A stretch of DNA of 63,913 nt, the filler included, from Collodictyon triciliatum (lineage: Eukaryota), in NCBI GenBank assembly GCA_043381765.1. It is 4 parts of 4 records of this genome, joined end to end, with 100 filler letters (N's around TTAATTAATTAA, not from the genome) between each part and the next. Parts side by side here need not be neighbours in the genome. Positions count along the whole stretch, not along the records: positions 22,021 to 43,923 come from JBHJMP010001163.1; 3 more parts are not named here. One strand, 5' to 3'. Numbering within the stretch: the first letter of the stretch is position 1; every line of letters begins with the position of its first letter. Under the pieces are notes generated by a model, which did not search any database, was not told where the DNA came from, and worked only from the letters and a program-made list of their open reading frames with translations. Of the stretch, positions 3,101 to 58,746 are shown in pieces. Made by a program: the position numbers and the translations under genes.

Positions 3101-5616
3101 TTGCGAACCGAATTCCGGAATTCATTTGCATACGACGACATTTATCAGAAAATGAATCAAAAGTAAGTCGAGTTGCTTTTCTTTTCTACATTCATATAGT
3201 TTTAGAGGGTTGATTTACCATAAAAAATCTGGCTTTTTTTAACCTAAAATAGAAAAAACCGAGGAATGAGTTTATCCATATACGGTGGACACGCTTTGTA
3301 CAAAACAGACGACCTGCAGCTCTTTATGAGGTACTTATTTTTACCAATTTTAGTGTTTGTTTAATCTGATTAGAAAGGAAGCCATGTTTAAAAGCTTCTC
3401 CAAAAGTACATATTTCAATAAACTAACACATATAATGCTCGTTGGGTGCTGTTTTTAAATTAACTTTACAAAATAGTTCGATATCTTCCAGTGTCTCTGA
3501 GTCCCTTAGACAAGTTTTAGATACATGGAACGGAAATATATTCCATTTTGCCGATTCTTGTGGAAGTAATGCTTTTGTCATATTGCACCCAGTGACATTA
3601 CATTTCCCCTAAACGGGACAAACTATGTTTTCACTCCGTGCCTTGGTGTGAGATGAACGATATTGATCAAATATCTTATGCAGATAAACCGCTGATATTT
3701 TCATCGGTGGCGATGTTTGAGCGATTTCAGCTGACAAAGAGACACAATATTGACGTTCCAAAGTTACTTGCTTTTCTCCGAGAAATCGAATCGGGCTACC
3801 GGGAAAACCCGTATCATACAAGTTGCCATGCGGCAGATGTTATGATCAACACCATGCATTTATTGTCCTCTGATAAGATTGGAACGTATCCTTCAATTTC
3901 AGTTTTATATGAATACCAAACCTGCATTTTTGTTATTGTCATTACTATCATACGTGTTTCTTACATAAATTCAGTTTAGGGACACATTTTTGCATTTGTG
4001 TCTCTTAGAATTGAAATATTCCTTGATTTATACCTGCGATTTAAAAATTAGAATTCTTACCGATATTGATGTTTTATCTGTATTCCTTGCGGCCATAATC
4101 CATGATTTTGCGCACACTGTAAGCTTTTCATATATATATATATATTTGGAGGAAAGAACGATAATATTGAGAAGAAAAGGCTAGGCAAGGAACACTAATT
4201 CAAAGATTACCTTTTCGCCCACCTTACTTTGTTGTTGATTTAAGGGTCTAAACAATAATTTCCACATCCAAACCGAGTCGAAATACTCAATCATTTATAA
4301 TGATAAATCTGTAAGGCCATTTGAATAAATTATGAAATATAAACGCAATTATGTCGGTACTTGAATAATTTTTTTCTTTTCCTGTCTAGAAGGAAAAATG
4401 ATTTCGACATGTGCTTACTATTATTTCTATTATTATTCAACTTTTTTTTTTTTAGATAATGGAGAATTACCATCTATATAAAGCTTTCACGGTTCTTAAG
4501 GATGAAAGATACAACTTCCTATGTAACATACCGAAAGAAGAGTATGTCACAATCCTCTTCCAGGAAACCACTTTATGTGATTCCTCTATTTTCGAAAAAA
4601 AAAGTTGAGGATAAATGCCGGACTTCACGTTAATATTTGGACAGAGAATGATTTATGCAATCATCTTCTAAACAAGGTTTAATCCGTGTCTTAGGAAAAA
4701 GCTCATTAGAGATACAGTTATCGAGTTAGTCTTATGTACAGATATGGCATATCACTTTGATTATGTCGGCAAGTTCAAAGCAAAAATAGGAACAGGAGGT
4801 AAGAACTGGTATCTGCACTTGTGATATACCGTCTGAATTTTTAAAATAAAAAAAATAGTATCATACTTGTTTGATTTCTGACCCTACCTTATCTGTGAAG
4901 CATAATTCGTATACAGAAAAAAGAAAGAAAGAATCTATTCTTTTAACGTGTAGCCGACTTGGATATGAATGCACGAGAAAACAAACTCCTCGTAATGCAA
5001 ATGGCTTTGAAATGCGCTGACCTTGCGCACATGGCAAAATCATTCCCGATTCACTCTCGGTGGACTGTAAGAGTAACTGAAGAATTTTACAGACAGGTAT
5101 TATATATTCCTTCCTTTCTTGTTTCTTTTTTCTCATTCATTTTCTCTTTAACCAAGCGATCAGGTGCTTTCTGAGCACGTATGATTCATCTTGCCAAGAA
5201 CTAAGTAATGTAAAACGCTCAACAGGGCGACCAAGAAGCCTCCCTGAACCTGCCGAAATCTCCGTTCATGGACCGCGACGCAGAAAACGTGCCGAAGAGT
5301 CAGATTGGGTATGATAGATTATATATTTAAAACATGAGAGAGAAAAGCAATAGTAATAATAATGTTTTTTTTGTTTTGTTTTGTTTTGTTAATGGCGGAA
5401 AGGCTAAATGGCAGCAACTTGACTATTAGATTTTTATCGTTCCTTGTAATGCCAATGTTTGGGTCTTGGATTCAATACGCAGGCGATGACTTCAATTTGA
5501 TGGGGCATTTGCAAAGTAATCTGAACCGATGGAAAGAGATGCAGCAAAACAGCCAGCTGACTCTAGCGGACCTTTCAAGTGAGCCAATTGACAGAAATAC
5601 AGTTGGGAATCAGTGA
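148..5616 (+). CDS. Multi-exon class I 3',5'-cyclic nucleotide phosphodiesterase with Ser/Pro-rich N-terminus and multi-pass TM block
   Basis: Spliced translation gives NPYHTSCHAADV, AAIIHDFAHTGLNNNF, IYNDKSIMENYH, LCTDMAYHF, KCADLAH, VTEEFYRQGDQE, SPFMDR and SQIGF, so the PDEase_I motifs are intact. Hydrophobic exons lie at about 1560-2620. ATG 148 joins ORF 550..1155 in frame via intron 225-575. Stop at 5616. Confidence 0.93.
3886..4051 (+). other. Candidate U12-type (minor spliceosome) GT-AG intron in the PDE gene
   Basis: Donor GTATCCTTC at 3886, branch-like TTCCTTGAT at 4019-4027, AG at 4050-4051. Removal restores DKIGT-ILTDIDVL in the catalytic domain. Confidence 0.7.
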
Positions 5617-7124: not shown

Positions 7125-9793
7125 ATGACGGGCGGACCTTCTCAGAAAGTCCCTCTGCTCCAGGGTTTGCAACTCTTCAGCTCTGCCCTGTTGCTCCCTC
7201 ATCCTGCTTATCCACACGTTATTGTGTGCCCCTTCCACAGCTAGTCCTCCAACACTGAGCTCCATAATTACTAAACTATGGTGTCGCAGCCTTATTGACT
7301 TTCTTTTAATTTCTTTTTCCATACCCGTGCCTTCCTCCACACTCCCTTTTTTTTTTTCGGTCCTCTTCCTCTTTCTATTGTGCTACTGAATCTATTCCCG
7401 TGAAACGAATCAATGCCATGCCGAATTGTGCTGAAGGACCCCCGTCCCATTTAGAGGACCGCTCCAACGCCGCTCACCCACCCACCGGCGCCGACGGAAA
7501 GGAGGATCTGAAGCGTGAGATCGAGCTTGTAAGGATCAGACCTCTCACGCACCATACTCGACCTCATTCTGTCTGTTTGTCTGTCTGTCTGTTTGTCTGT
7601 CTGTTTGTCTGTCTGTTTGTCTATCTGTCTGTCTGTCTGTTTGTCTATCTGTCTGTCTGTATTTGCGTCATAGCGCAGGCAGAGCCTAACCGCAGCAACT
7701 GCTTCACTTCCTTAGGACGACCACAAGCTCTCCATCGCCGACTGCCTCGCCCGCCACCGCACCGACCCCACCAAGGTATGTGTCTCCCAGCTGCCCTTCC
7801 TTCGAGACCAAACCACGCTGACTCGCATACCCACTTAACACACAGGGCCTGTCCAGCGTCGATGCCGAGGAGCGTCTCCGCACCTACGGACCCAATGCCC
7901 TGACTCCGCCCAAGCAGGATCCCGAGTGGAAGAAGCTGCTGAAGCAGTTCACCGGTGAGCCTTTGCCTTTGCCTTTGCCTTTTGCTTTCGAGTCCGGCTT
8001 GCTCTCTACTGCTGTCTAAGAAGCACGTGGCCACGCCTCCTTTCCACGCTGCGGAGTCCATGGAGGCCCGCACGAAGCAGTTCTGCACTCTGCTAACACA
8101 CGTCCTCTCTGGCCGATCCGTAGGCTGGTTCTCGATCCTTCTGGAGGTCGGAGCTCTGCTGTCCTTCATCGGCTACGCGCTGGACCCTGACGCACCCGAG
8201 AATGTATGTGCTCTCCTCCCCTCTTGTTGGCACCGCTCTCGCCTCCTGGCCTCTGCCTAACCCGGCATCCCCTCTCCGACTCGTGCAGCTGTACATCGGT
8301 GTCGTCCTGGCTGCCGTCGTCATCATCACGTCCGTCTTCAGCTACTACCAGGAGTTCAAGTCCAACTCCATCATGGAGAAGTTCAAGAACTTCCTGCCCC
8401 AGATGGCCACCGTCATCCGCAACGGCGAGAAGATCAAGATCGACGCCACCGACGTTGTCCCCGGAGACGTCATCGAGATCATCGGCGGGAACAAGGTCCC
8501 TGCCGATCTGCGCCTGATCCAAGTCAGCAACCTCAAGGTACTCCTCCTCCCACATAAGGCATCCTCCACCGGACACACAAAGACACAATCACACGCATGG
8601 ATTGAGTGAGTGAATGAGTGGGTGGGTGGGTGAGTCCTCGCTGACGGGCGTCGATGCACACCAGGTCGACAACGCCTCGCTGACGGGAGAGGCAGAGCCG
8701 CAGTCGCGCGGCCCCGAGATGACGGACGAGAACCCGCTGGAGACCAAGAACCTTGCGTTCTACGGGACGCTGGCCACGGAGGGCTCGGCCATCGGGATTG
8801 CGATCGGGACGGGCGACCGCACGGTCATCGGGCGCATTGCGGGCCTTGCTGCGTCCACGGTGGCCGAGGACACGCCGATCCACCGCGAGATCCACCACTT
8901 CATCCTGATCATCACGGGCGTCGCCATCTTCCTGGGCACCACCTTCTTCATGATCGGCATGATCATCTCGGGCGGCGACTGGATCACCAACCTGGTCTTC
9001 ATGATCGGCATCATCGTCGCAAACGTGCCCGAGGGCCTGCTCGCCACCGTCACCGTCTCCCTGACCCTCACGGCCAACCGCATGGCCTCCAAGAACGTCC
9101 TCGTCAAGAATCTCGAGGCCGTCGAGACCCTCGGCTCCACAACCACCATCTGCTCCGACAAGACCGGCACCCTGACCCAGAACGTCATGACTGTTTGTAA
9201 GTCTCTCTCTTTCTTTCTTTTACATACACACACACACACACACACACTCTCTCTCTCTCTCGCCCCCTCCTTTCTCACTTGGCCGCACCAACCAGCGCAT
9301 ATGTGGTACGACAAGTCCATCTTCGAGTGCGAGACGTCGACCCAGCGCGCAAACTTCAACCCGGCCGCACCCACCTTCCTGGCCCTCGCCCGCGTCGCCA
9401 CCCTCTGCAACCGCGCCGTCTTCGACCCCAAGAAGGAGCGCGATGCCCAGGGCCACATGGCGACCATCGGCGATGCCTCCGAGTCGGCCCTCATCAAGTT
9501 CTGCAACCCCATCCGCAACATCACCGAGTTCCGCGATGCCAACCCCAAGCTCTTTGAGATTCCCTTCAACTCCATGAACAAGTACCAGATCTCCATCCAC
9601 AAGCAGGAGTCTGCCGCCAACGACACCCGCCAATTGCTGGTCATGAAGGGTGCCCCCGAGCGCATCCTCGAGAGAAGCTCACACGTCCTCATCAACGGAA
9701 AGGTAACCCCACCCCTGATCCATGCAGATATAATATACACATCTCTTAACTCCATATCATCCCCGCGTGTATTCTTTATTATTATTATTATTC

Positions 9794-9835
<42 letters not shown>

Positions 9836-11736
9836 TAAAAAATAAAAGAAACAAACACACACACCCAACTGGTGGTGGAACGGCTATACCAAGAATCAAA
9901 CAACTGACCCCAGCTCGCTCAAATTACCCCGACCAGGTTGAGCCAGTCACCGAGCGCTTCCGCGCAGAGTTCCAGAAGGCCTACGAAACCCTCGGCTCCA
10001 TGGGTGAGCGCGTGCTTGGCTTTGCCCAGTTTGTCCTCCCTGCCGACCAGTTCCATGCCGACTTCTCCTACTCGGACAAGGATGGCGGAAACTTCCCCAC
10101 CTCTGACCTCTGCTTCGTCGGCCTCATGTCCCTCATCGACCCGCCCCGCCCGGCCGTCCCCGACGCCATCGCCAAGTGCAAGACCGCTGGTATCAAGGTC
10201 ATCATGGTTACCGGAGACCACCCCATCACTGCCAAGGCCATCGCCCGCCAGGTCGGAATCATCACCGATGACACCATCGAGGACATCGCCGAGAAGGAAG
10301 GCAAGTCTGTCCAGGACATCGACCCTAGCCGCGCCAACGCCATCGTCATCCATGGCCACCAGCTCAAGGAGTACACCGAGGACGATTGGGAGCGCACCAT
10401 GAACCACAGCCAGATCGTCTTTGCCCGCACTTCCCCTACACAGAAGCTCGTCATTGTCGAGCACTGCCAGATGCGCAAGGAGGTCGTCGCCGTCACCGGT
10501 GATGGTGTCAACGACTCGCCAGCCCTCAAGAAGGCCGATATTGGTGTCGCCATGGGTATCTCCGGTTCTGATGTGTCCAAGGAAGCTGCTGACATGATTC
10601 TGCTCGATGACAACTTTGCCTCCATCGTCCACGGTGTCGAGGAAGGTCGTCTCATCTTTGACAACTTGAAGAAGTCCATTGCCTACACTCTGTCCTCCAA
10701 CATCCCTGAGATTTCGCCCTTCCTGATCTACATCACCGTCAACGTTCCCCTGCCGCTCTCCACTGTGCTCATCCTCAGTATCGATCTTGGAACTGACATG
10801 ATTCCCGCCATCTCCCTCGCCTACGAGAAGGCCGAATCCGACATCATGAAGCGCCCACCCCGTAACTCCCAGACTGATCGCCTTGTGAATGCCCGCCTCA
10901 TCTCCTTCGCCTACTTCCAGATCGGTTTGTCTACCCTCCCTTCACTCGTAGTCTCTTTTTATTTTCTTCTTTCTTTTTATCCCCTTGTAACATCTCATGG
11001 GTTGAGTTGAGTGGAACTCGGCCTCTCCTCTCCTCTCCTCTCCTCTCCACTCCACTCCACTCCACTCCCCTCCCCTCCACTTGCTCCACAACAAACCCAT
11101 CAATCATACCAACGGTTCATCCTGCTCAGGTATGACCCAGGCTGTTGCTGGTTTCTTCACCTACTTTGTGGTCATGGGCGACTACTTCTTTGCCCCGTGG
11201 ATGCTCCCCGGAACGGGTCTCCTGTGGGAGGACGAGAATCAGGCTGTCAACGGCCGCAACTTCGTCGATCGTCGTGAGGCCCTCTACCGCGCCCAGACCG
11301 CCTTCTTCGTCTCGATCGTGGTTGTCCAGTGGGCTGACCTGCTCATCTGCAAGACCCGCAAGCTCTCCATCGTCACCCAGAAGATGAACAACGGCCACCT
11401 CAACTTCGGCCTGTTCTCTGAGACTGCCATCGCCGCCGCCCTCTGCTACGTCCCCTTCCTCAACACCATCTTCTCCACCCGCCCCATCCGCTTCGTCCAT
11501 TGGTGCCCTGCCCTCCCCTGGTGAGTAGTAGTGATGCTATCCTGCTCCTGCTCCTGCTCCTCCTTCCTGGTCTACCCATGCATTTTTCATTTTATTTATT
11601 TATTTTTCTGGTGCGCCTACTCAATACATTACTTTGCTGCAAAAGGTCGCTGCTCATCTTCCTGTACGACGAAGTGCGCAAGTACCTCATCCGCCAGAGC
11701 CCCAACGGCTGGCTCGACCGCTTCACCTACTACTAG
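7125..11736 (+). CDS. Na+/K+-transporting P-type ATPase alpha subunit (P2C), 11-exon model
   Basis: [92 protein letters not shown] and C-terminal RFTYY. Exon 1 (7125-7164) splices in phase to 7455. The start exon is the least certain part. Confidence 0.96.
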
Positions 11737-21920: not shown

Positions 21921-22020
21921 NNNNNNNNNNNNNNNNNNNNNNNNNNNNNNNNNNNNNNNNNNNNTTAATTAATTAANNNNNNNNNNNNNNNNNNNNNNNN
22001 NNNNNNNNNNNNNNNNNNNN
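21921..22020. other. Artificial contig spacer
   Basis: 44 N + TTAATTAATTAA (stops in all six frames) + 44 N. Confidence 0.98.
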
Positions 22021-23059
22021 TTTTTTCTTTTTTTCTTTTTTTCTTTTTTTCTTTTTTTCTTTTTTTCTTTTTTTCTTTTTTCTTTTTTTCTTTTTTCGAA
22101 GAAATAATATCTGAGAAAAAAATACCGAGCAGGAAGCACGCTGGCAAGAGAAAACGAAAAAGAAGGACATTTCGAACGGATGTCGACATCTTTCTTCCTT
22201 CCTTGCACTCTTGAATGCTACTCCAGTCGACGCTAACCAGTCGCGTGTACGCGTCTACCTCTCTGTCGGGAAGCACAATTTGCGTTCGCTGGTCTGTTCT
22301 TTGGAGTGCACTTGCGTATTGCTATTGGCAGTGGGCGACTGAAATCAGGTGCATTTAGTTGTTTTTTGTTTTTTGTTTTTTGAGGAGAGAAGAGAAGACT
22401 GGCCCTTGCATGGGATTCGCGTTTGCTCAGGCCACAACGTTGAGAGGCCTCTCCGCAGTTTTGCCGCGGTTGTGCCTGCGCGTCATCGCCCAGTCTGCGT
22501 GTGTTTTGACAGCTGCCTGATCCTGCTCGTTTGGCGCGCATATTTTGTTTTATGGATCGACGCAAAACCACAACATAATTTCCGCAAATAGAAGTACTAA
22601 GACTTTGGCACCATCCAATGAAACGCACGATTCTAGTCTCGAACACTCTAACCCGCCTCTGAACAACACAAGACTTCGCCAGCTGTTCCGCCTAGTGCGC
22701 CATACAAAGTCCAATCCCACAAGCCACACACGTGCCACCTTCCATTTCTGGATACATAAATTCATCAAAACCACACGATGAAAATGTTTGCGCGGCAGAC
22801 TACCCTTGATACAAATATATATTATTTTACTGAATATTATATATATATATCCTATAGAGAAAGATTTCTTTGAAAGAATCTTCTACCTTTTTTGCCTTCT
22901 TGTTGGCTGTGGGTGCCCGAGCCCTAAGATCCGCTTTCCACGAATCCGATCCCTCGCGATGCATCATGAACCAATACGATGTTTTCTCAGATCAAATCCG
23001 CAACACACAAATACACAGACACAAATCACAAGACACGCGGGATACTCGCTCGCTCTTTG

Positions 23060-23164
23060 AACTCAACTCAACTCAACTCAACTCAACTCAACTCAACTCA
23101 ACTCAACTCAACTCAACTCAACTCAACTCAACTCAACTCAACTCAACTCAACTCAACTCAACTC
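23060..23164. repeat. (ACTCA)n pentanucleotide microsatellite
   Basis: Perfect tandem ACTCA units just upstream of the ATG at 23215. Confidence 0.95.
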
Positions 23165-23214
23165 TCAACTTAACTCTCAACTCTGTTCTCACGCCGATCG
23201 CCGCAGGACTTTGA

Positions 23215-26200
23215 ATGGATCGTGGTTTTCTCGCAGCTTTGATCCTTGTGCTCGCCCTTATTGCAGCGGCCAACGCATATGCGCTCAGCAAACCAGCCAC
23301 TGTGGCAAACACCGCACATGACTCGCTGCCCCGTGTCGAGTCTCTCAGCAGACTGCAACGCAGCGCTCAAGCTCGTCGCACAGTGCGACCACAGCCGATC
23401 CGCATCAAGGTCGCGGAGGTCCAGCAGATAGCCGATCAGGAAGTCCGGGCCCTGCTTGTGAACGATCTCTTCCCGGCCGCCGTCTCTTCTCTCGCTTCGA
23501 TCCTGCGTGTTTGGACACCGCTTGAATCCAACCTAACTCTGCCTCGCACGTGCTCCTCCGTCAACCCCACGACTGGTTTGCCTCAGCTATTGTGACACTT
23601 TTTCTTTTTCTTTTTCTTTTTCTTTTTCTTTTTCTTTTCCTTTTCCTTTTCTTTTCCTTTTCTTTTGGATATGTTTTAGTTTCTGGTAGGGAATGGGTTC
23701 AGTGAGCACGCTATTCGAGAATCGGTTTGTTGGGCATATCTTTACTCTAACCATCTATCTGACCCAGGCGTGTGCCAAACCTATGCTGAGAAAACTATTT
23801 GTGGAACCACAGAGATCCCTCCCCAGTATCTGACGGGCCAGGGTTCTGGTGCTGCCGCCGATTTTATTCTGTTCCTGCAATACAACAGCGTCCCTGCCTG
23901 CACAGCTGAAAAATCCGTCACCATTGAATACTGCCACCGCCTGGCCGAGGATGACCGGTATGGGATAATTATATGCTTGCATAAATCCTTATAAATATCA
24001 TCAAGTCTTCTAACACCATCGCAAATTAATAAATGGAAAAAAAAAAGCCCAACGTCAGGAATTGTTAACATCTGCCCTGCGTTCCTCAAGCTGGGCTATG
24101 TGTCACAGAAGAAGTTTGTTCTGCACGTTTTGATGCATCAAGCTGGATTCCATCAAGTACACATGCCCTTCTGGAGAGACGAGTTTGGAGAGCCCAGGTC
24201 GCTATCTCTTTTTCTTTCGTCAAATCAAGGCTACTATTCATATCCGTGGAATCAGCCTTTTTTTTGAAAAAGATACGTGAAAGTGCAGGCAACCCTCTGG
24301 AAATTTTGGTGTTAATCCTCATAGTTTATCGCAAATAGAGTGCCCCGCGAGAGCTCTGGCCTCCCCGTCATCGACGAATTAACCAAAGGATATTCAACTG
24401 CGAATGTGGTCCAGTCTTTCACTGAACGTGGACATACAGTGAAAAAGCTGATCACTCCGAACGCGCTTGCCTTTGCTCGCAAACACACCGGATGCTCGAC
24501 GCTGAATGGTATCTTCAATAAAGATTCGAATCCATCGTCTATCATGTATGCATCCCCATCTCTCCATAATGTGTTAACTTTAAAGAAAGGGCTTGAAAGC
24601 TAAGTCGGAGCTAACTCAAATCCATATTTTAGGTGTTGAGTTGGAAGATCAAGGAAGTGAAGCTGGAAGCAACTGGGAGGCTCGTGTTGCTCTCGGGTAA
24701 GTCGTCCCTCGGTCCCATGTTAATCCTCTATATACCCATCAGATTCTATTGAGTTATCAGCCTGATGTGTAAATGTTGTTCCTCAAAATTTAAAGAATGG
24801 TATTTCACGTAGGGAAATCATGGAGGGAACCATACGTGACTCGTCTGTTGTGTCATTGCTTACTCTAGGTGCGTTCCAAGACATGGGTTGGTACGACGTC
24901 AATCTGCTCCAGGTATTTGAATTTTCGCTTTCAGTCATGTATATATATATCGCTAACGTGTGAGGATTCAGACTGGAATACTTATGTAAACGTCTCAAAA
25001 GGCCTCCACTCTGCCTTGGGGTTACCAACGAGGATGTGCAGCGGTGACAGAAAAATGTATTCAGGATGAGGCCCCTGTCGATGAGACAATGTTTTGCCAC
25101 ATTCCTGGCCCGGACACTCGCTTTTACTGCACAAATAATCGCCGTGGATTTGGCGCCTGCAATACTACAACATATGCCAACAACCTCCCTGCCCAGTATC
25201 AGTACTTTGAGAACCCCAAAGTCGGAGGTTTGTCCTTCATAAGTCATACATCAGAGTTATAATAGATATTGTGTGTCCATCGGTTTCAATTTTCTGGAAT
25301 ACAGCCCCGGCTTCATCTCACATAAGCACTTAAGTATGGAGCCTGCAGACTAAGCAGCCACACCTTAGGAAGTGAAAGTTTACTAGATTACTGTCCCATC
25401 ATCCGGCCCCTTCCCACGGGTTCCTGCAATCCTTTCGGCTATTCTACTGGTGTGATTGATGAATACGGATCTAGCCTCGGTGTTGATTCGTTTTGCTTTG
25501 ACTCCACCCTTGCTTACGGCGGTGTCGCTGATGACATTCAAGCTCGCTGCTACCGAGTAATTTTTTTATATTATGTTATCTCAATATGCAATTATGTAAA
25601 ATATGGTCTAACTGAGACAAAAATACTTGCTATCTATCGGGGGTTTGTCCTTACTTTCTATTATTTTTTTAATGCTTTTTACTTCGCTCATTGACCCTTT
25701 GATTTTGTGTGTCAGGCTGATTGCATCCAAAGGTACCCCCAGGCACCGCACCGAGTGCGTGTTACGATTGGATTTGAGTCTCATATTTGTGACACTGACG
25801 ACGAGCAGCTGCTCTTTTCCAGGTATGGGCACTCTCCAGAAAAATTTGAGCATGAATAAATCTGAATCAAATCTGCTCTTTAGCTACACAGGCTACATCC
25901 AGTGCCCTCCTGTCCATTCCATCTGCCCCGAGCACGAGTGTGCTTGCTCTGCTGGTGGGAAATGCATTGAAGGGGAATGCTACTGTCCATTTGGCAACTG
26001 CGGTGACTCTACTATTTACCATTAACATAATGAGAGTTTTTTTGCACTCTGTCAAATTTACTTTACTATAGTATGTATTATATTTCTCAAGATATACTGC
26101 ATCAATAGCAACTGATTGTATCTTGAGCGAGTGGTCAGCTTGGTCGAGTTGCAGTGCTGAATGTGGCCCTGGAACACAAACCCGCACTCGTGAGGTTATT

Positions 26201-28137
26201 TCAGCTCCCAAAAATGGAGGCGTTGCATGTGGTGTCCTGGAGGAATCCATGGACTGTAATCTCGGCACCTGCAGTATGTATTACCACCCTTTACATTTTT
26301 TTATGTCGCAGAATTTCTAGGAGAGCTTGAAATCGTCTCAAATATATTGTCATGGAAGAGGAGGTAAAGGAAAGTTGATGCCAAACCTATCTGTACTCAC
26401 AATAGACCAAGGAGATGAAACGCCTCAACCCACTGGAGCAATATACGACTGGCAAACTAGTGAATGGTCACCTTGTGAGCCTTTATGCCTTCGTGGACTG
26501 AAGCACCGAGATGTGTTTTGCGTTCACGTACCCTCTGGGGAAACCGTAAGTCCTTTTTGCGACCAATCCATTCGCCATGGAATGTGCAGTTCTCTGATAA
26601 TACTTTATCATTCTTGTACCGTAACTATGGTGACATTATGGCTATGCTGATAGGTTGGTGACTGCTTCTGTCAACAAGAAAAGCCAGAGGAGGAGACCGA
26701 TTGCCACGATGAGCCCGACCTTTCCCACACCTGTACAGCCACAGAAACCATCGGACCCGAGGGAGGAGAGGGTATGACTGTATTCGTCTTTTATTTCTAT
26801 TTTTTTTTTTTTTGTGGTTTCATTCTAACTTCATATTAAGTTGCTTTTTCTGATTCGTCATTATTCTTTCTGTCTCGTTGAATATCTTGTCTCAAGTTTA
26901 TCATGAGGAGCACATGTCCTTCACCCTGCCTCCTAATGCTGTGAATATGACTTATGTCATCAAAATCACAACGTACGAGACATACGGCGAGATCGACAAG
27001 GCCAAAGTAAGTCCCCAACAAACGGTATTGAAGACTATAGCACGACAAAAGCTATCACCATTTATGCTGAATCTGCGGGTTCACAGGCCCCTAATCCCTT
27101 CCTTTTCCTCTACTTGTCTTGCAGTACAGCGACCCCCTCCCTCACTCGCTCGTGTCGCCTCTCTTTGAATTCCAACCATCCGGGCTGACCTTCAAGCATC
27201 CTGCCGCTATTCGCATCCTGATTCCACACGAAAAGTACGACAGCCACGATGAGTATGCTGTTTTTATTCTCTCTGAAGGATCTGTCTGGGAGCGCTCCAA
27301 CCACACGTCCATCCACAAGGAGCACCACGTAATTACATCAAGATGCAGGAAAGAATCATGATTGAAAACGAAATGAAATCGGCTCATTATTTCTCAAGCC
27401 ATCTAACTTTCTCCTTTGGTGTCGCGTGTACCATAAATGCAGGAGGTGTTTTTGTACGGAGAAGTGGAGCACTTTTCCCTCGTTGCAGCCTTCCGAATCG
27501 AAGAGGAACCAATCGACCTTTGTAAGTCATCAGATTGCTGATATATACTTGCTCCACATCTCTCCCTGACTGTGTGGTTTATATTCTTATTCGTTGTCGC
27601 TTTCTCTCTTTCTCTCTTTCTCTCTTTCTCTCTTTCTCTCTTTCTCTCTTTCTCTCTTTCTCTCTTTCTCTCTTTCTCTCTTTCTCTCTTTCTCTCTTTC
27701 TTTCTTCCTCCCGCTGCAGCCGACGCCATCCGCAACGGAGTCCTGCTTGTGCTCCTGCTTTGCGCCATGACGGGGCTCTGCCTCTTCTACTTTTCCCGCC
27801 AGGACCACACAAAGACATCAGCACCGTTCGACTGGAGCAATATCGGCCGAAGCCTGCGTGGCCTCTGCATGCCAGCAGTTTGTTTCCTTCATTCCTGCCT
27901 CTCGTCATTCTCCTTTTTTCACACCTGCTTCTTTTGTTGGTATCTTTCTATCTTTCTATCTTTCTATCTTTCTATCTTTCTATCTTTCTATCTTTCTATC
28001 TTTCTATCTTTCTATCTTTGTATGTGCTTGTTGACATTGCGCTGGCTTCGTCTCGCTTGACTCAGTGTCTTCTTGTTATGACAATCCTGCAGCCTGCCGA
28101 ACTGCGCCAACGCAACGACGCTGACGAGCATCTCTAA
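23215..28137 (+). CDS. Leishmanolysin/GP63 (peptidase M8)-like type I membrane protein, predicted inactive: signal peptide-M8-EGF-TSP1-TSP1-ZU5-TM-short tail
   Basis: Signal peptide MDRGFLAALILVLALIAAANA. M8-like ADFILF, DDRPTSGIVNICP, LITPNALAFARKHTGCSTLNGVELEDQG, LTLGAFQDMGWY, LDYCP, SFCFDSTL, ARCYR. EGF CSAGGKCIEGECYC. TSP1 WSAWSSCSAECGPGTQTRTR and WQTSEWSPCEPLC. ZU5 IGPEGG...LPPNAV...VSPLFEFQPSGLTFKHPAAIRILIPH. TM GVLLVLLLCAMTGLCLFYF. Ends PAELRQRNDADEHL*. Confidence 0.88.
27601..27700. repeat. Compound (TTTCTCTC/TTTCTCTCTC)n intronic repeat; a (TTTCTATC)n tract follows at about 27942-28019 in the next intron
   Basis: Visible tandem pyrimidine units inside introns of the M8-like gene. 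Confidence 0.9.
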
Positions 28138-28490: not shown

Positions 28491-28995
28491 ACACATACAC
28501 AACCTGCCCATTCCCTCTGTGGTAAGCGCCCACAGCCGGTTCATGAAGCGCAACACTGCTGGTTTGTCTGCTTCGGCAATTCTCTGCAGGCCGAAAAACT
28601 CATTCTCATATTCTCCACATATGGGATGCGGGCTGAAGGGACAATAATGGCATCGAATCCACACAGGCTGTGCAACTTCGAATCTATTGTAAAAGACCAA
28701 AAGTGGGATGATTCTCCGGCTTTAATTTTACATATTGTGATTTGTAGCAGTCGAAGTAGCAGAAGCAGCATGAGATTTTATATTTTCCAGAAATAGTATA
28801 TATGTGTTTTCGGCGTTCGAACCGGCGCTCCGGTTTTGGTTTCTTACGAAACGTTCCTCTTAATCCTCTTGGGTTGTGTGGAGGGAAAGGACTCACCAGC
28901 CAGTCCCACGCACAAAGTCTGTAAAGAAGGCACAAAGACAGAGCGGAAGGGAATAAACAGACAATTGAAGGGCGCTGAGAGGTTTGTGGACAAAA

Positions 28996-43923: not shown

Positions 43924-44023
43924 NNNNNNNNNNNNNNNNNNNNNNNNNNNNNNNNNNNNNNNNNNNNTTAATTAATTAANNNNNNNNNNNNNNNNNNNNN
44001 NNNNNNNNNNNNNNNNNNNNNNN
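43924..44023. other. Artificial contig spacer
   Basis: 44 N + TTAATTAATTAA + 44 N. Confidence 0.98.
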
Positions 44024-44172: not shown

Positions 44173-48542
<4,370 letters not shown>

Positions 48543-58646: not shown

Positions 58647-58746
58647 NNNNNNNNNNNNNNNNNNNNNNNNNNNNNNNNNNNNNNNNNNNNTTAATTAATT
58701 AANNNNNNNNNNNNNNNNNNNNNNNNNNNNNNNNNNNNNNNNNNNN
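58647..58746. other. Artificial contig spacer
   Basis: 44 N + TTAATTAATTAA + 44 N. Confidence 0.98.

Follow-up and report, generated by a model that had tools for sequence, protein, structure and literature searches.

A leishmanolysin homologue of Collodictyon triciliatum with a dismantled active site is likely to be a maintained pseudoprotease receptor

The stretch of DNA analysed here, called the window throughout, comprises 63,913 nucleotides of the genome of Collodictyon triciliatum in four parts joined end to end, and carries at positions 23215-28137 of the plus strand a gene of 18 exons that ends in a TAA stop codon and encodes a protein of 897 amino acids with a domain resembling leishmanolysin, the GP63 peptidase of Leishmania (family M8). 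We consider it likely that this gene specifies a maintained pseudoprotease receptor, in which the M8-like domain is a catalytically dead head with its scaffold kept and, probably, a role in binding; the gene itself is expressed. The first-pass annotation of the same DNA had already taken it for a maintained pseudo-protease and not a decaying pseudogene, and the present analysis supports that view, because spliced RNA was found in three studies, the reading frame is intact, a full-length orthologue (P0004) also lacks the catalytic Glu, and 41 of 44 conserved columns of the family are unchanged.

Active-site substitutions

The features of an active M8 peptidase that the window protein lacks are the Glu of the HExxH zinc motif, the third zinc-binding His and the Cys switch of the propeptide. 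In the place of HExxH it reads H210-V-L-M-H214, followed by QAGF, with Val for the Glu; Asn304, in GSNWEAR, stands where homologues have the third His; and the propeptide motif CxHD is represented by TAHD. Translation placed all three exactly where the first-pass annotation had read them (Table 1), and no HExxH motif was found elsewhere in the whole window protein, nor in P0004. In Leishmania major GP63, mutation of H264, E265 or H268 abolishes activity, and even the exchange of Glu for Asp does so (PMC11957388); because the Glu is required for activity, the M8-like domain of the window protein is presumably devoid of peptidase activity.

The equivalence of these positions to the leishmanolysin site was traced in two steps. 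The HTLLH motif of P0004 aligns opposite HEMAH of L. major leishmanolysin (PDB 1LML), and for its downstream His and Met the counterparts in 1LML are the third His and the Met; the window protein and P0004, in turn, align without gaps at the active-site positions. P0004 has lost the Glu, which is replaced by Thr, and has TVHQ, without the switch Cys, at the propeptide site, but keeps the third His (RGHWEAR); its zinc motif and His cluster read HTLLHHLGLHEAH. The losses therefore appear to have been sequential and not a single package. The first-pass description of three independent catalytic-machinery residues is thus not supported in that form: the Glu and the third His are indeed changed, but the Cys switch is a latency device, of which most homologues have no recognisable version, and the losses occurred in steps.

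Conservation among M8 homologues

Fifty-three homologues cover both motif regions and are the basis of all counts given out of 53. The Glu of HExxH is present in 50 of these and the third His in 52; each of the two motif His residues is likewise found in 52, and the Met of the Met-turn in 51. The homologues without the Glu are P0004, P0007 (HLFLH) and P0013, in which the motif is fully degenerate. A propeptide Cys was aligned in 14 of the 53, with a further 35 gapped at that column, and among the 41 homologues whose N-terminal sequence is long enough, 13 were positive in a scan for C.H[DEH]; the absence of the switch Cys from the window protein therefore counts for little. The nearest relatives that possess the switch, P0014 and P0045, are of the active type, and since their C.HD aligns with TAHD, the latter is taken to be a real remnant of the motif.

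An alignment of 50 M8 proteins gave 44 columns with a conservation of at least 90%, of which P0004 keeps 42 and the window protein 41. The three changed columns in the window protein are the Glu (to Val), the third His (to Asn) and the motif Leu two places past the second His (to Ala); every Cys among the 44 columns is present, as is the Met. Unconstrained drift is unlikely, because an open frame of 18 exons, the Cys residues and all other invariant positions have been kept at such a divergence. The contig differences amount to eight synonymous and seven non-synonymous changes, over approximately 630 and 2061 sites, respectively, a ratio of about 0.27 that is based on small counts. The alignments thus indicate that the loss is targeted at the active site and that the rest of the scaffold is under selection.

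Phylogenetic analysis places P0004 with the window protein in one clade (support 1.0, on a long stem), and the sister group of this pair (support 0.92) consists of P0001, P0045 and P0102, all of which have HExxH; this is in keeping with a single ancient loss of the Glu in the pair. P0007 and P0013 lie far from this clade, which points to independent losses and suggests that dead M8 domains arose more than once.

The orthologue P0004

P0004 (918 amino acids) comes from a Trinity transcriptome in EukProt, and its open reading frame is complete. It was among the 133 matches that exon 7 gave when 1.84 billion representative proteins were searched without a profile, and it was the best of the 133 against the spliced model, at 956 bits, the next best reaching 254 bits. 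From signal peptide to tail, the two proteins share 47% (blastp) to 48% (428/886) identity and the same order of domains. By region, the identity is 35% in the propeptide, 46% in the M8-like domain (206/447, with three gap positions), 72% in the EGF-like module, 64% and 49% in the two TSP1 repeats, 58% in the ZU5 domain, and 48% in the membrane helix and tail; 40 Cys residues are common to both proteins, two being found only in the window protein and one only in P0004. On its own, P0004 matches PF01457 with 163.7 bits (E = 8.8e-48, residues 123-551), has two TSP1 repeats (the second matching TSP1_ADAMTS with E = 3.6e-11) and, at full length, scores 22.2 bits for ZU5, against a cut-off of 21.

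With 49 homologues as input, AlphaFold2 gave a model of P0004 whose predicted local distance difference test (pLDDT) score is mostly 85-96 over residues ~65-560 and 96 in the helix that carries the motif. When this model was compared with the PDB using Foldseek, 1LML was the sole match at E ≤ 0.001 (E = 1.2e-29, target template-modelling score 0.70), which indicates a leishmanolysin fold for P0004. By its sequence, and by its fold as modelled on this orthologue, the window protein belongs to the M8 family.

Wider searches gave no further confirmed orthologue. Metagenome scans with exon 15 and with a two-row alignment as queries produced 315 and 338 pattern matches, respectively, none of which was confirmed; the ESM Atlas, queried with P0004, gave no usable match, and neither did a word-index protein search with exon 7 give any. 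A comparison of exon 3 alone with PDB sequences returned a chance match only (E = 1.8), which was discarded.

Gene model and transcripts

The gene model was assembled manually by coordinates, with one acceptor adjusted by RNA contigs, namely that of exon 12, which lies at 26406 rather than at 26412 as in the initial model. All 17 introns are of the GT..AG type and the 897 codons contain no internal stop, in keeping with the earlier statement that the exons stay in frame with their splice sites kept. Most of the sequencing runs that match parts of the gene are metatranscriptomes of lakes and other fresh water; four runs, each from a separate study, were compared with it, three of them RNA (X1, X2 and X4) and one DNA (X3). 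Of the 17 introns, 15 are spliced out at the modelled sites in contigs of the three RNA runs, and hence in three studies: 14 of these are listed in the joint table of the runs, and intron 16 is bridged by a single X4 record. Introns 5 and 6 are represented by loose contig ends only. The DNA contigs of X3 continue from exons into introns, as expected of genomic DNA, and X1 carries ends of the template-switch oligonucleotide type, which fits cDNA. The gene is expressed and correctly spliced.

The substitutions reported by the first-pass annotation are found again in RNA. The codons for TAHD have the same letters as the window in contigs of X1 and X4, the Asn304 codon has no listed difference in the same two runs, X2 being without cover there, and the X1 contig spanning 24047-24195 shows no other letters at the HVLMH codons.

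A contig of X4 extends 5′ of the AG at 23205-23206, nine bases before the ATG, by 20 extra letters, for which no match was found within the 64-kb window with up to three mismatches allowed; they may stem from a trans-spliced leader, or else from a 5′ exon that is distant or masked. The run of N at 21921-22020 might conceal their source. Long microsatellites lie both beside and inside the gene: repeated pentamers stand just 5′ of the start (23055-23165), and pyrimidine-rich repeats lie in introns 1 (23595-23670), 16 (27590-27705) and 17 (27930-28010), the last of which attracts a very high depth of unrelated DNA contigs from X3.

Table 1. Features of the leishmanolysin-like gene and of the protein it encodes, in window coordinates.
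Feature	Position	Strand	Basis or remark
Exons 1-6	23215-23575, 23768-23957, 24048-24197, 24339-24508, 24633-24696, 24813-24912	+	Manual model
Exons 7-12	25002-25227, 25369-25556, 25716-25822, 25884-26002, 26109-26273, 26406-26545	+	Manual model
Exons 13-18	26654-26771, 26897-27006, 27125-27328, 27443-27521, 27720-27877, 28093-28137 (TAA)	+	Manual model
Signal-peptide-like N-terminus, residues 1-24	23215-23286	+	By eye: short charged start, hydrophobic run, small residues
TAHD (T33-A-H-D), remnant of propeptide CxHD, Cys to Thr	23311-23322	+	Aligned with C.HD of homologues
Leishmanolysin (Peptidase_M8)-like domain, residues ~111-535, exons 1-10	23545-25950	+	PF01457 matches
Degenerate zinc motif and His cluster, HVLMHQAGFHQVH	24124-24162	+	First five codons (24124-24138) in the place of HExxH
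Asn304 in GSNWEAR, position of the third zinc-binding His	24671-24673	+	Alignment with homologues
Met315 of the Met-turn (EIMEG), kept	24820-24822	+	Aligned with the 1LML Met via P0004
Cys-rich EGF-like module, exon 10	25884-26002	+	Weak EGF_2 match, E 0.062; 72% identity to P0004
First TSP1 repeat, exon 11	26109-26273	+	TSP1_spondin, E 4.2e-19, 69 bits, cut-off 41
Second TSP1 repeat and acidic linker, exons 12-13	26406-26771	+	TSP1_ADAMTS on exon 12, E 7.1e-07, 29.8 bits, cut-off 23.8
ZU5 domain, exons 14-16	26897-27521	+	By homology to P0004; exon 15 alone, PF00791, E 0.02, 15.6 bits, below cut-off 21; domain split over three exons
HFS, residues 814-816, C-terminal end of ZU5, candidate self-cleavage site	27470-27478	+	Once per protein, aligned
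Transmembrane helix, residues 837-855	27737-27793	+	Hydrophobic run, by eye; P0004 model helix 848-886
Short cytoplasmic tail, end of exon 17 and exon 18, past intron 27878-28092	27794-28137	+	Alignment with P0004

Domain architecture and the ZU5 region

Family profiles were scanned exon by exon, with each exon translation taken separately. The protein is read as a signal peptide followed by the M8-like domain, an EGF-like module, two TSP1 repeats and a ZU5 domain, and ends in a single transmembrane helix with a short tail. The matches to PF01457 are collinear on exons 4, 6, 7 and 8 (profile positions 239-275, 300-329, 332-404 and 407-453). Exon 7 alone scores 51.2 bits (cut-off 21, E = 1.1e-13), those of exons 4, 6 and 8 being weaker, and with the alignment to 1LML via P0004 the assignment to M8 made by the first-pass annotation is borne out. 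Both TSP1 repeats lie above the curated profile cut-offs. In pairwise alignments, the tail motif FDW-x-NIGRSLRGLCMPAP is nearly identical in P0004. With an N-terminal signal peptide and a single helix at residues 837-855, the ZU5 domain would share its side of the membrane with the TSP1 and M8 modules, which are rich in disulfides, and is thus presumably extracellular, in what appears to be a type I single-pass membrane protein.

Homology to P0004 (58% identity) identifies the region that precedes the membrane helix as ZU5. The 143 residues of P0004 that match the ZU5 region score 26.4 bits (E = 8.3e-06) and, in a comparison with proteins of known structure, also match ZU5 chains of ankyrin and ZO-1 (best E = 7.6e-4). 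The sequence HFS occurs once in the window protein (at 814) and once in P0004 (at 833), at the same aligned place, ~120 residues past the start of ZU5 and ~20 before the membrane helix, a placement made by sequence spacing only, since the P0004 model is of low confidence in this part. ZU5 is known from cytosolic animal proteins, and we found no literature that joins leishmanolysin and ZU5, nor any that uses the term ‘extracellular ZU5’. PIDD cleaves itself at HF/S directly past each of its ZU5 domains, and the fragments remain associated (PMC3210808); by analogy, the conserved HFS hints at self-cleavage here.

Taking this analogy further, we tentatively suggest that the protein may be a protist counterpart of self-cleaving adhesion receptors, which we regard as possible rather than probable. 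The extracellular ZU5 would cut at HFS, leaving the ectodomain held non-covalently until it is shed or pulled off upon engagement of a ligand; the tail would signal, and any metal held by the His cluster may serve ligand binding and not catalysis. If the HFS site works, it would represent an extracellular use of ZU5 self-cleavage.

Comparison with known systems

L. major leishmanolysin (GP63; PDB 1LML, MEROPS M8, PF01457) is of the same family by sequence and, through the P0004 model, of the same predicted fold. The Cys framework, the Met-turn, both motif His residues and the xHD remnant of the propeptide, where the cysteine switch of Leishmania is HRC[IV]HD (PMC11957388), are common to both, whereas the general-base Glu, the third His and the switch Cys are absent from the window protein. 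The anchors differ as well: GP63 carries a glycosylphosphatidylinositol anchor directly after the M8 domain (PMC11957388), whereas the window protein is anchored by a membrane helix past its EGF-like, TSP1 and ZU5 modules. In addition, and in contrast to L. major GP63, the window gene has many introns and belongs to a free-living freshwater eukaryote.

The direct precedent for a dead M8 domain is provided by groups G9 and G10 of the Trypanosoma cruzi GP63 proteins, which are M8 homologues that lack the active-site Glu, are presumed inactive and have been proposed to have non-proteolytic roles at the surface (PMC11957388). They belong, however, to a parasite multigene family located in a variable genome compartment and accompanied by many pseudogenes, and an architecture of TSP1, ZU5 and membrane helix is not described for them in the available extract of that paper (PMC11957388). 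The window protein and P0004, in contrast, are a single conserved orthologue pair, and in the window protein the third His has also been lost.

Among the M12 metzincins, the dead ADAMs (ADAM11, ADAM22, ADAM23 and unc-71) similarly place a non-catalytic metzincin fold on top of a single-pass adhesive receptor, and in the case of ADAM22 it is the metalloprotease-like domain that provides the surface for LGI1 binding (PMC11266112); they differ from the window protein in belonging to M12 and not to M8, and in their other accessory domains. This pseudopeptidase review makes no mention of leishmanolysin (PMC11266112).

The UNC5 netrin receptors, which were matched through the TSP1 part (PDB 6OOL), are also single-pass proteins with two TSP1 repeats, one membrane helix and a ZU5 domain. 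Their head consists of Ig domains. The ZU5 domain of UNC5 is cytoplasmic (PMC3210808), whereas that of the window protein stands ahead of the membrane helix, and a dead M8 domain takes the place of the head. PIDD, NLRP1 and CARD8 resemble the window protein in having a ZU5 (in FIIND) with a C-terminal HFS followed by a stretch resembling a β-strand (PMC3210808); these proteins are cytosolic, however, whereas the ZU5 considered here is presumably extracellular, with neither a UPA nor a death domain after it.

Set against these systems, what is already known is the existence of Glu-less GP63 groups in T. cruzi and of dead ADAMs. What is new is the architecture, with a putatively dead M8 domain, an EGF-like module, two TSP1 repeats, a juxtamembrane ZU5 with HFS and a membrane helix, together with its conservation between two free-living lineages and the apparently stepwise loss of the active site. 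The reuse of proteases as binding modules is well documented for ADAMs and carboxypeptidases, and in the leishmanolysin family the presumed inactive T. cruzi GP63 groups are the only precedents that we found. Stepwise dismantling, of the Glu and then of a zinc ligand, with 41 of 44 positions kept, would be a clean example from a little-studied family, and gives a starting point for asking what a leishmanolysin fold that does not cut may bind; in other respects, the protein is a solid yet unsurprising addition to the catalogue of pseudoenzymes.

Interpretation and alternatives

The M8-like head is most likely the ligand-binding or surface-binding part of an adhesion or recognition receptor, a role that we infer from the architecture, in which TSP1 repeats, an EGF-like module, ZU5 and a transmembrane helix accompany the domain. 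As the first event, the common ancestor of P0004 and the window protein would have lost the Glu; the third His would have gone later, in the lineage of the window protein, with the disulfide framework, the Met-turn and the rest of the scaffold held by selection throughout. The resulting head would sit on a stalk of the EGF-like module, the two TSP1 repeats and the juxtamembrane ZU5, followed by the helix and the short conserved tail, and would bind without cutting, in the manner of dead ADAMs such as ADAM22.

Several observations weigh against this interpretation. Both motif His residues (H210 and H214) and the Met-turn are kept, and a clade-specific His cluster, HxxxHxxGxHxxH, followed by MP[FY]WRD, is common to the window protein and P0004; metal binding is possible on account of the retained motif His residues, the Met-turn and the extra conserved His residues nearby, which leaves room for a metal site and even, conceivably, for some chemistry. 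The predicted structure is that of P0004 and not of the window protein, with residues 582-847 of the model below a pLDDT of 50, and P0004 is the only orthologue found. The signal peptide and the membrane helix were assigned by eye. At the nucleotide level, the HVLMH codons are confirmed by one RNA run only (X1), X2 having no cover there, and the DNA run X3 covers none of the three codon groups; moreover, an X1 contig is two bases short at 23401, which, if real, would end the frame at codon 103.

The retained His residues and Met-turn are grounds for supposing that the protein is still a metal-binding enzyme with altered chemistry, in which the motif His residues and the new His residues two or five places past the motif Gly (G+2 or G+5) would bind a metal while water is activated by some other residue or by the substrate itself. 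The short-spacer metzincin motif is HExxHxxGxxH, and the His pattern seen here resembles it with one residue fewer; the whole HxxxHxxGxHxxH-MP-[FY]-WRD stretch is conserved in both proteins, whereas His at G+2 and at G+5 is rare among the homologues (3/53 and 2/53), and P0004 still has all three canonical His residues. Nevertheless, we found no conserved acidic residue at or near the position of the base, which is Val in the window protein and Thr in P0004. A catalytic Glu that had migrated was considered and rejected, because the candidate sequence, HEAH just past the motif of P0004, reads HQVH in the window protein. L. major GP63 is inactive with even Asp in place of Glu (PMC11957388). The difference between the orthologues in the third ligand is hard to reconcile with a conserved catalytic metal site, and we consider an altered enzyme unlikely. 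A function as decoy or regulator, directed at active M8 peptidases within the same cell or at the substrates of these, for example by holding substrates uncut, is also rather doubtful. The scaffold of the substrate cleft is preserved, to judge from the 41 of 44 conserved columns, and the regulation of active cousins is a common role of pseudopeptidases (PMC11266112), but no second copy of M8, and hence no active paralogue, was found in the window, and the TSP1 repeats, ZU5, membrane anchor and conserved tail suit a receptor better than a soluble decoy.

That the gene was inactivated recently and is now decaying as a transcribed pseudogene could be argued from its two active-site losses and from the truncating gap in the X1 contig, which is of low depth (~4.6). 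Contigs of both X2 and X4 cover position 23401 without the two-base gap, however, which is perhaps an error of the contig, or else a broken allele carried by the related organism that the X1 run sampled. Furthermore, the loss of the Glu is shared with P0004, which at 47-48% identity is itself a complete frame with the same domains, the changes are confined to the active site, and 17 of 17 introns keep GT..AG around a frame open over 897 codons; decay is accordingly very improbable. Errors of assembly or sequencing at the three codon groups are scarcely credible, given the agreement of independent RNA libraries (X1 and X4 for TAHD and Asn, X1 for HVLMH) and the independent absence of the Glu from P0004. 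A maintained receptor with a dead M8 head thus remains the reading that we prefer.

Other features of the window

Three stretches of the window, 21921-22020, 43924-44023 and 58647-58746, are paired runs of 44 N with 12 bases between them, which represent masking or gaps and are not sequence. No Rfam match was found in the window; ARAGORN made one tRNA-like call at 28749-28836 on the plus strand, 600 bases past the leishmanolysin-like gene, with an undefined two-base anticodon, which is probably spurious. Open frames on the minus strand at 45686-47193 resemble exons of glycine dehydrogenase (P protein), and one on the plus strand at 3596-3979 resembles a catalytic exon of a cyclic-nucleotide phosphodiesterase, both by eye only. 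A gene with introns for the α-subunit of a P-type ATPase of the Na/K type lies at 8124-11500 on the plus strand; one of its exons, of 326 amino acids, is 100% identical to a protein from a JGI contig, 85-92% identical to transcriptome proteins and ~70% identical to animal Na/K-ATPases.

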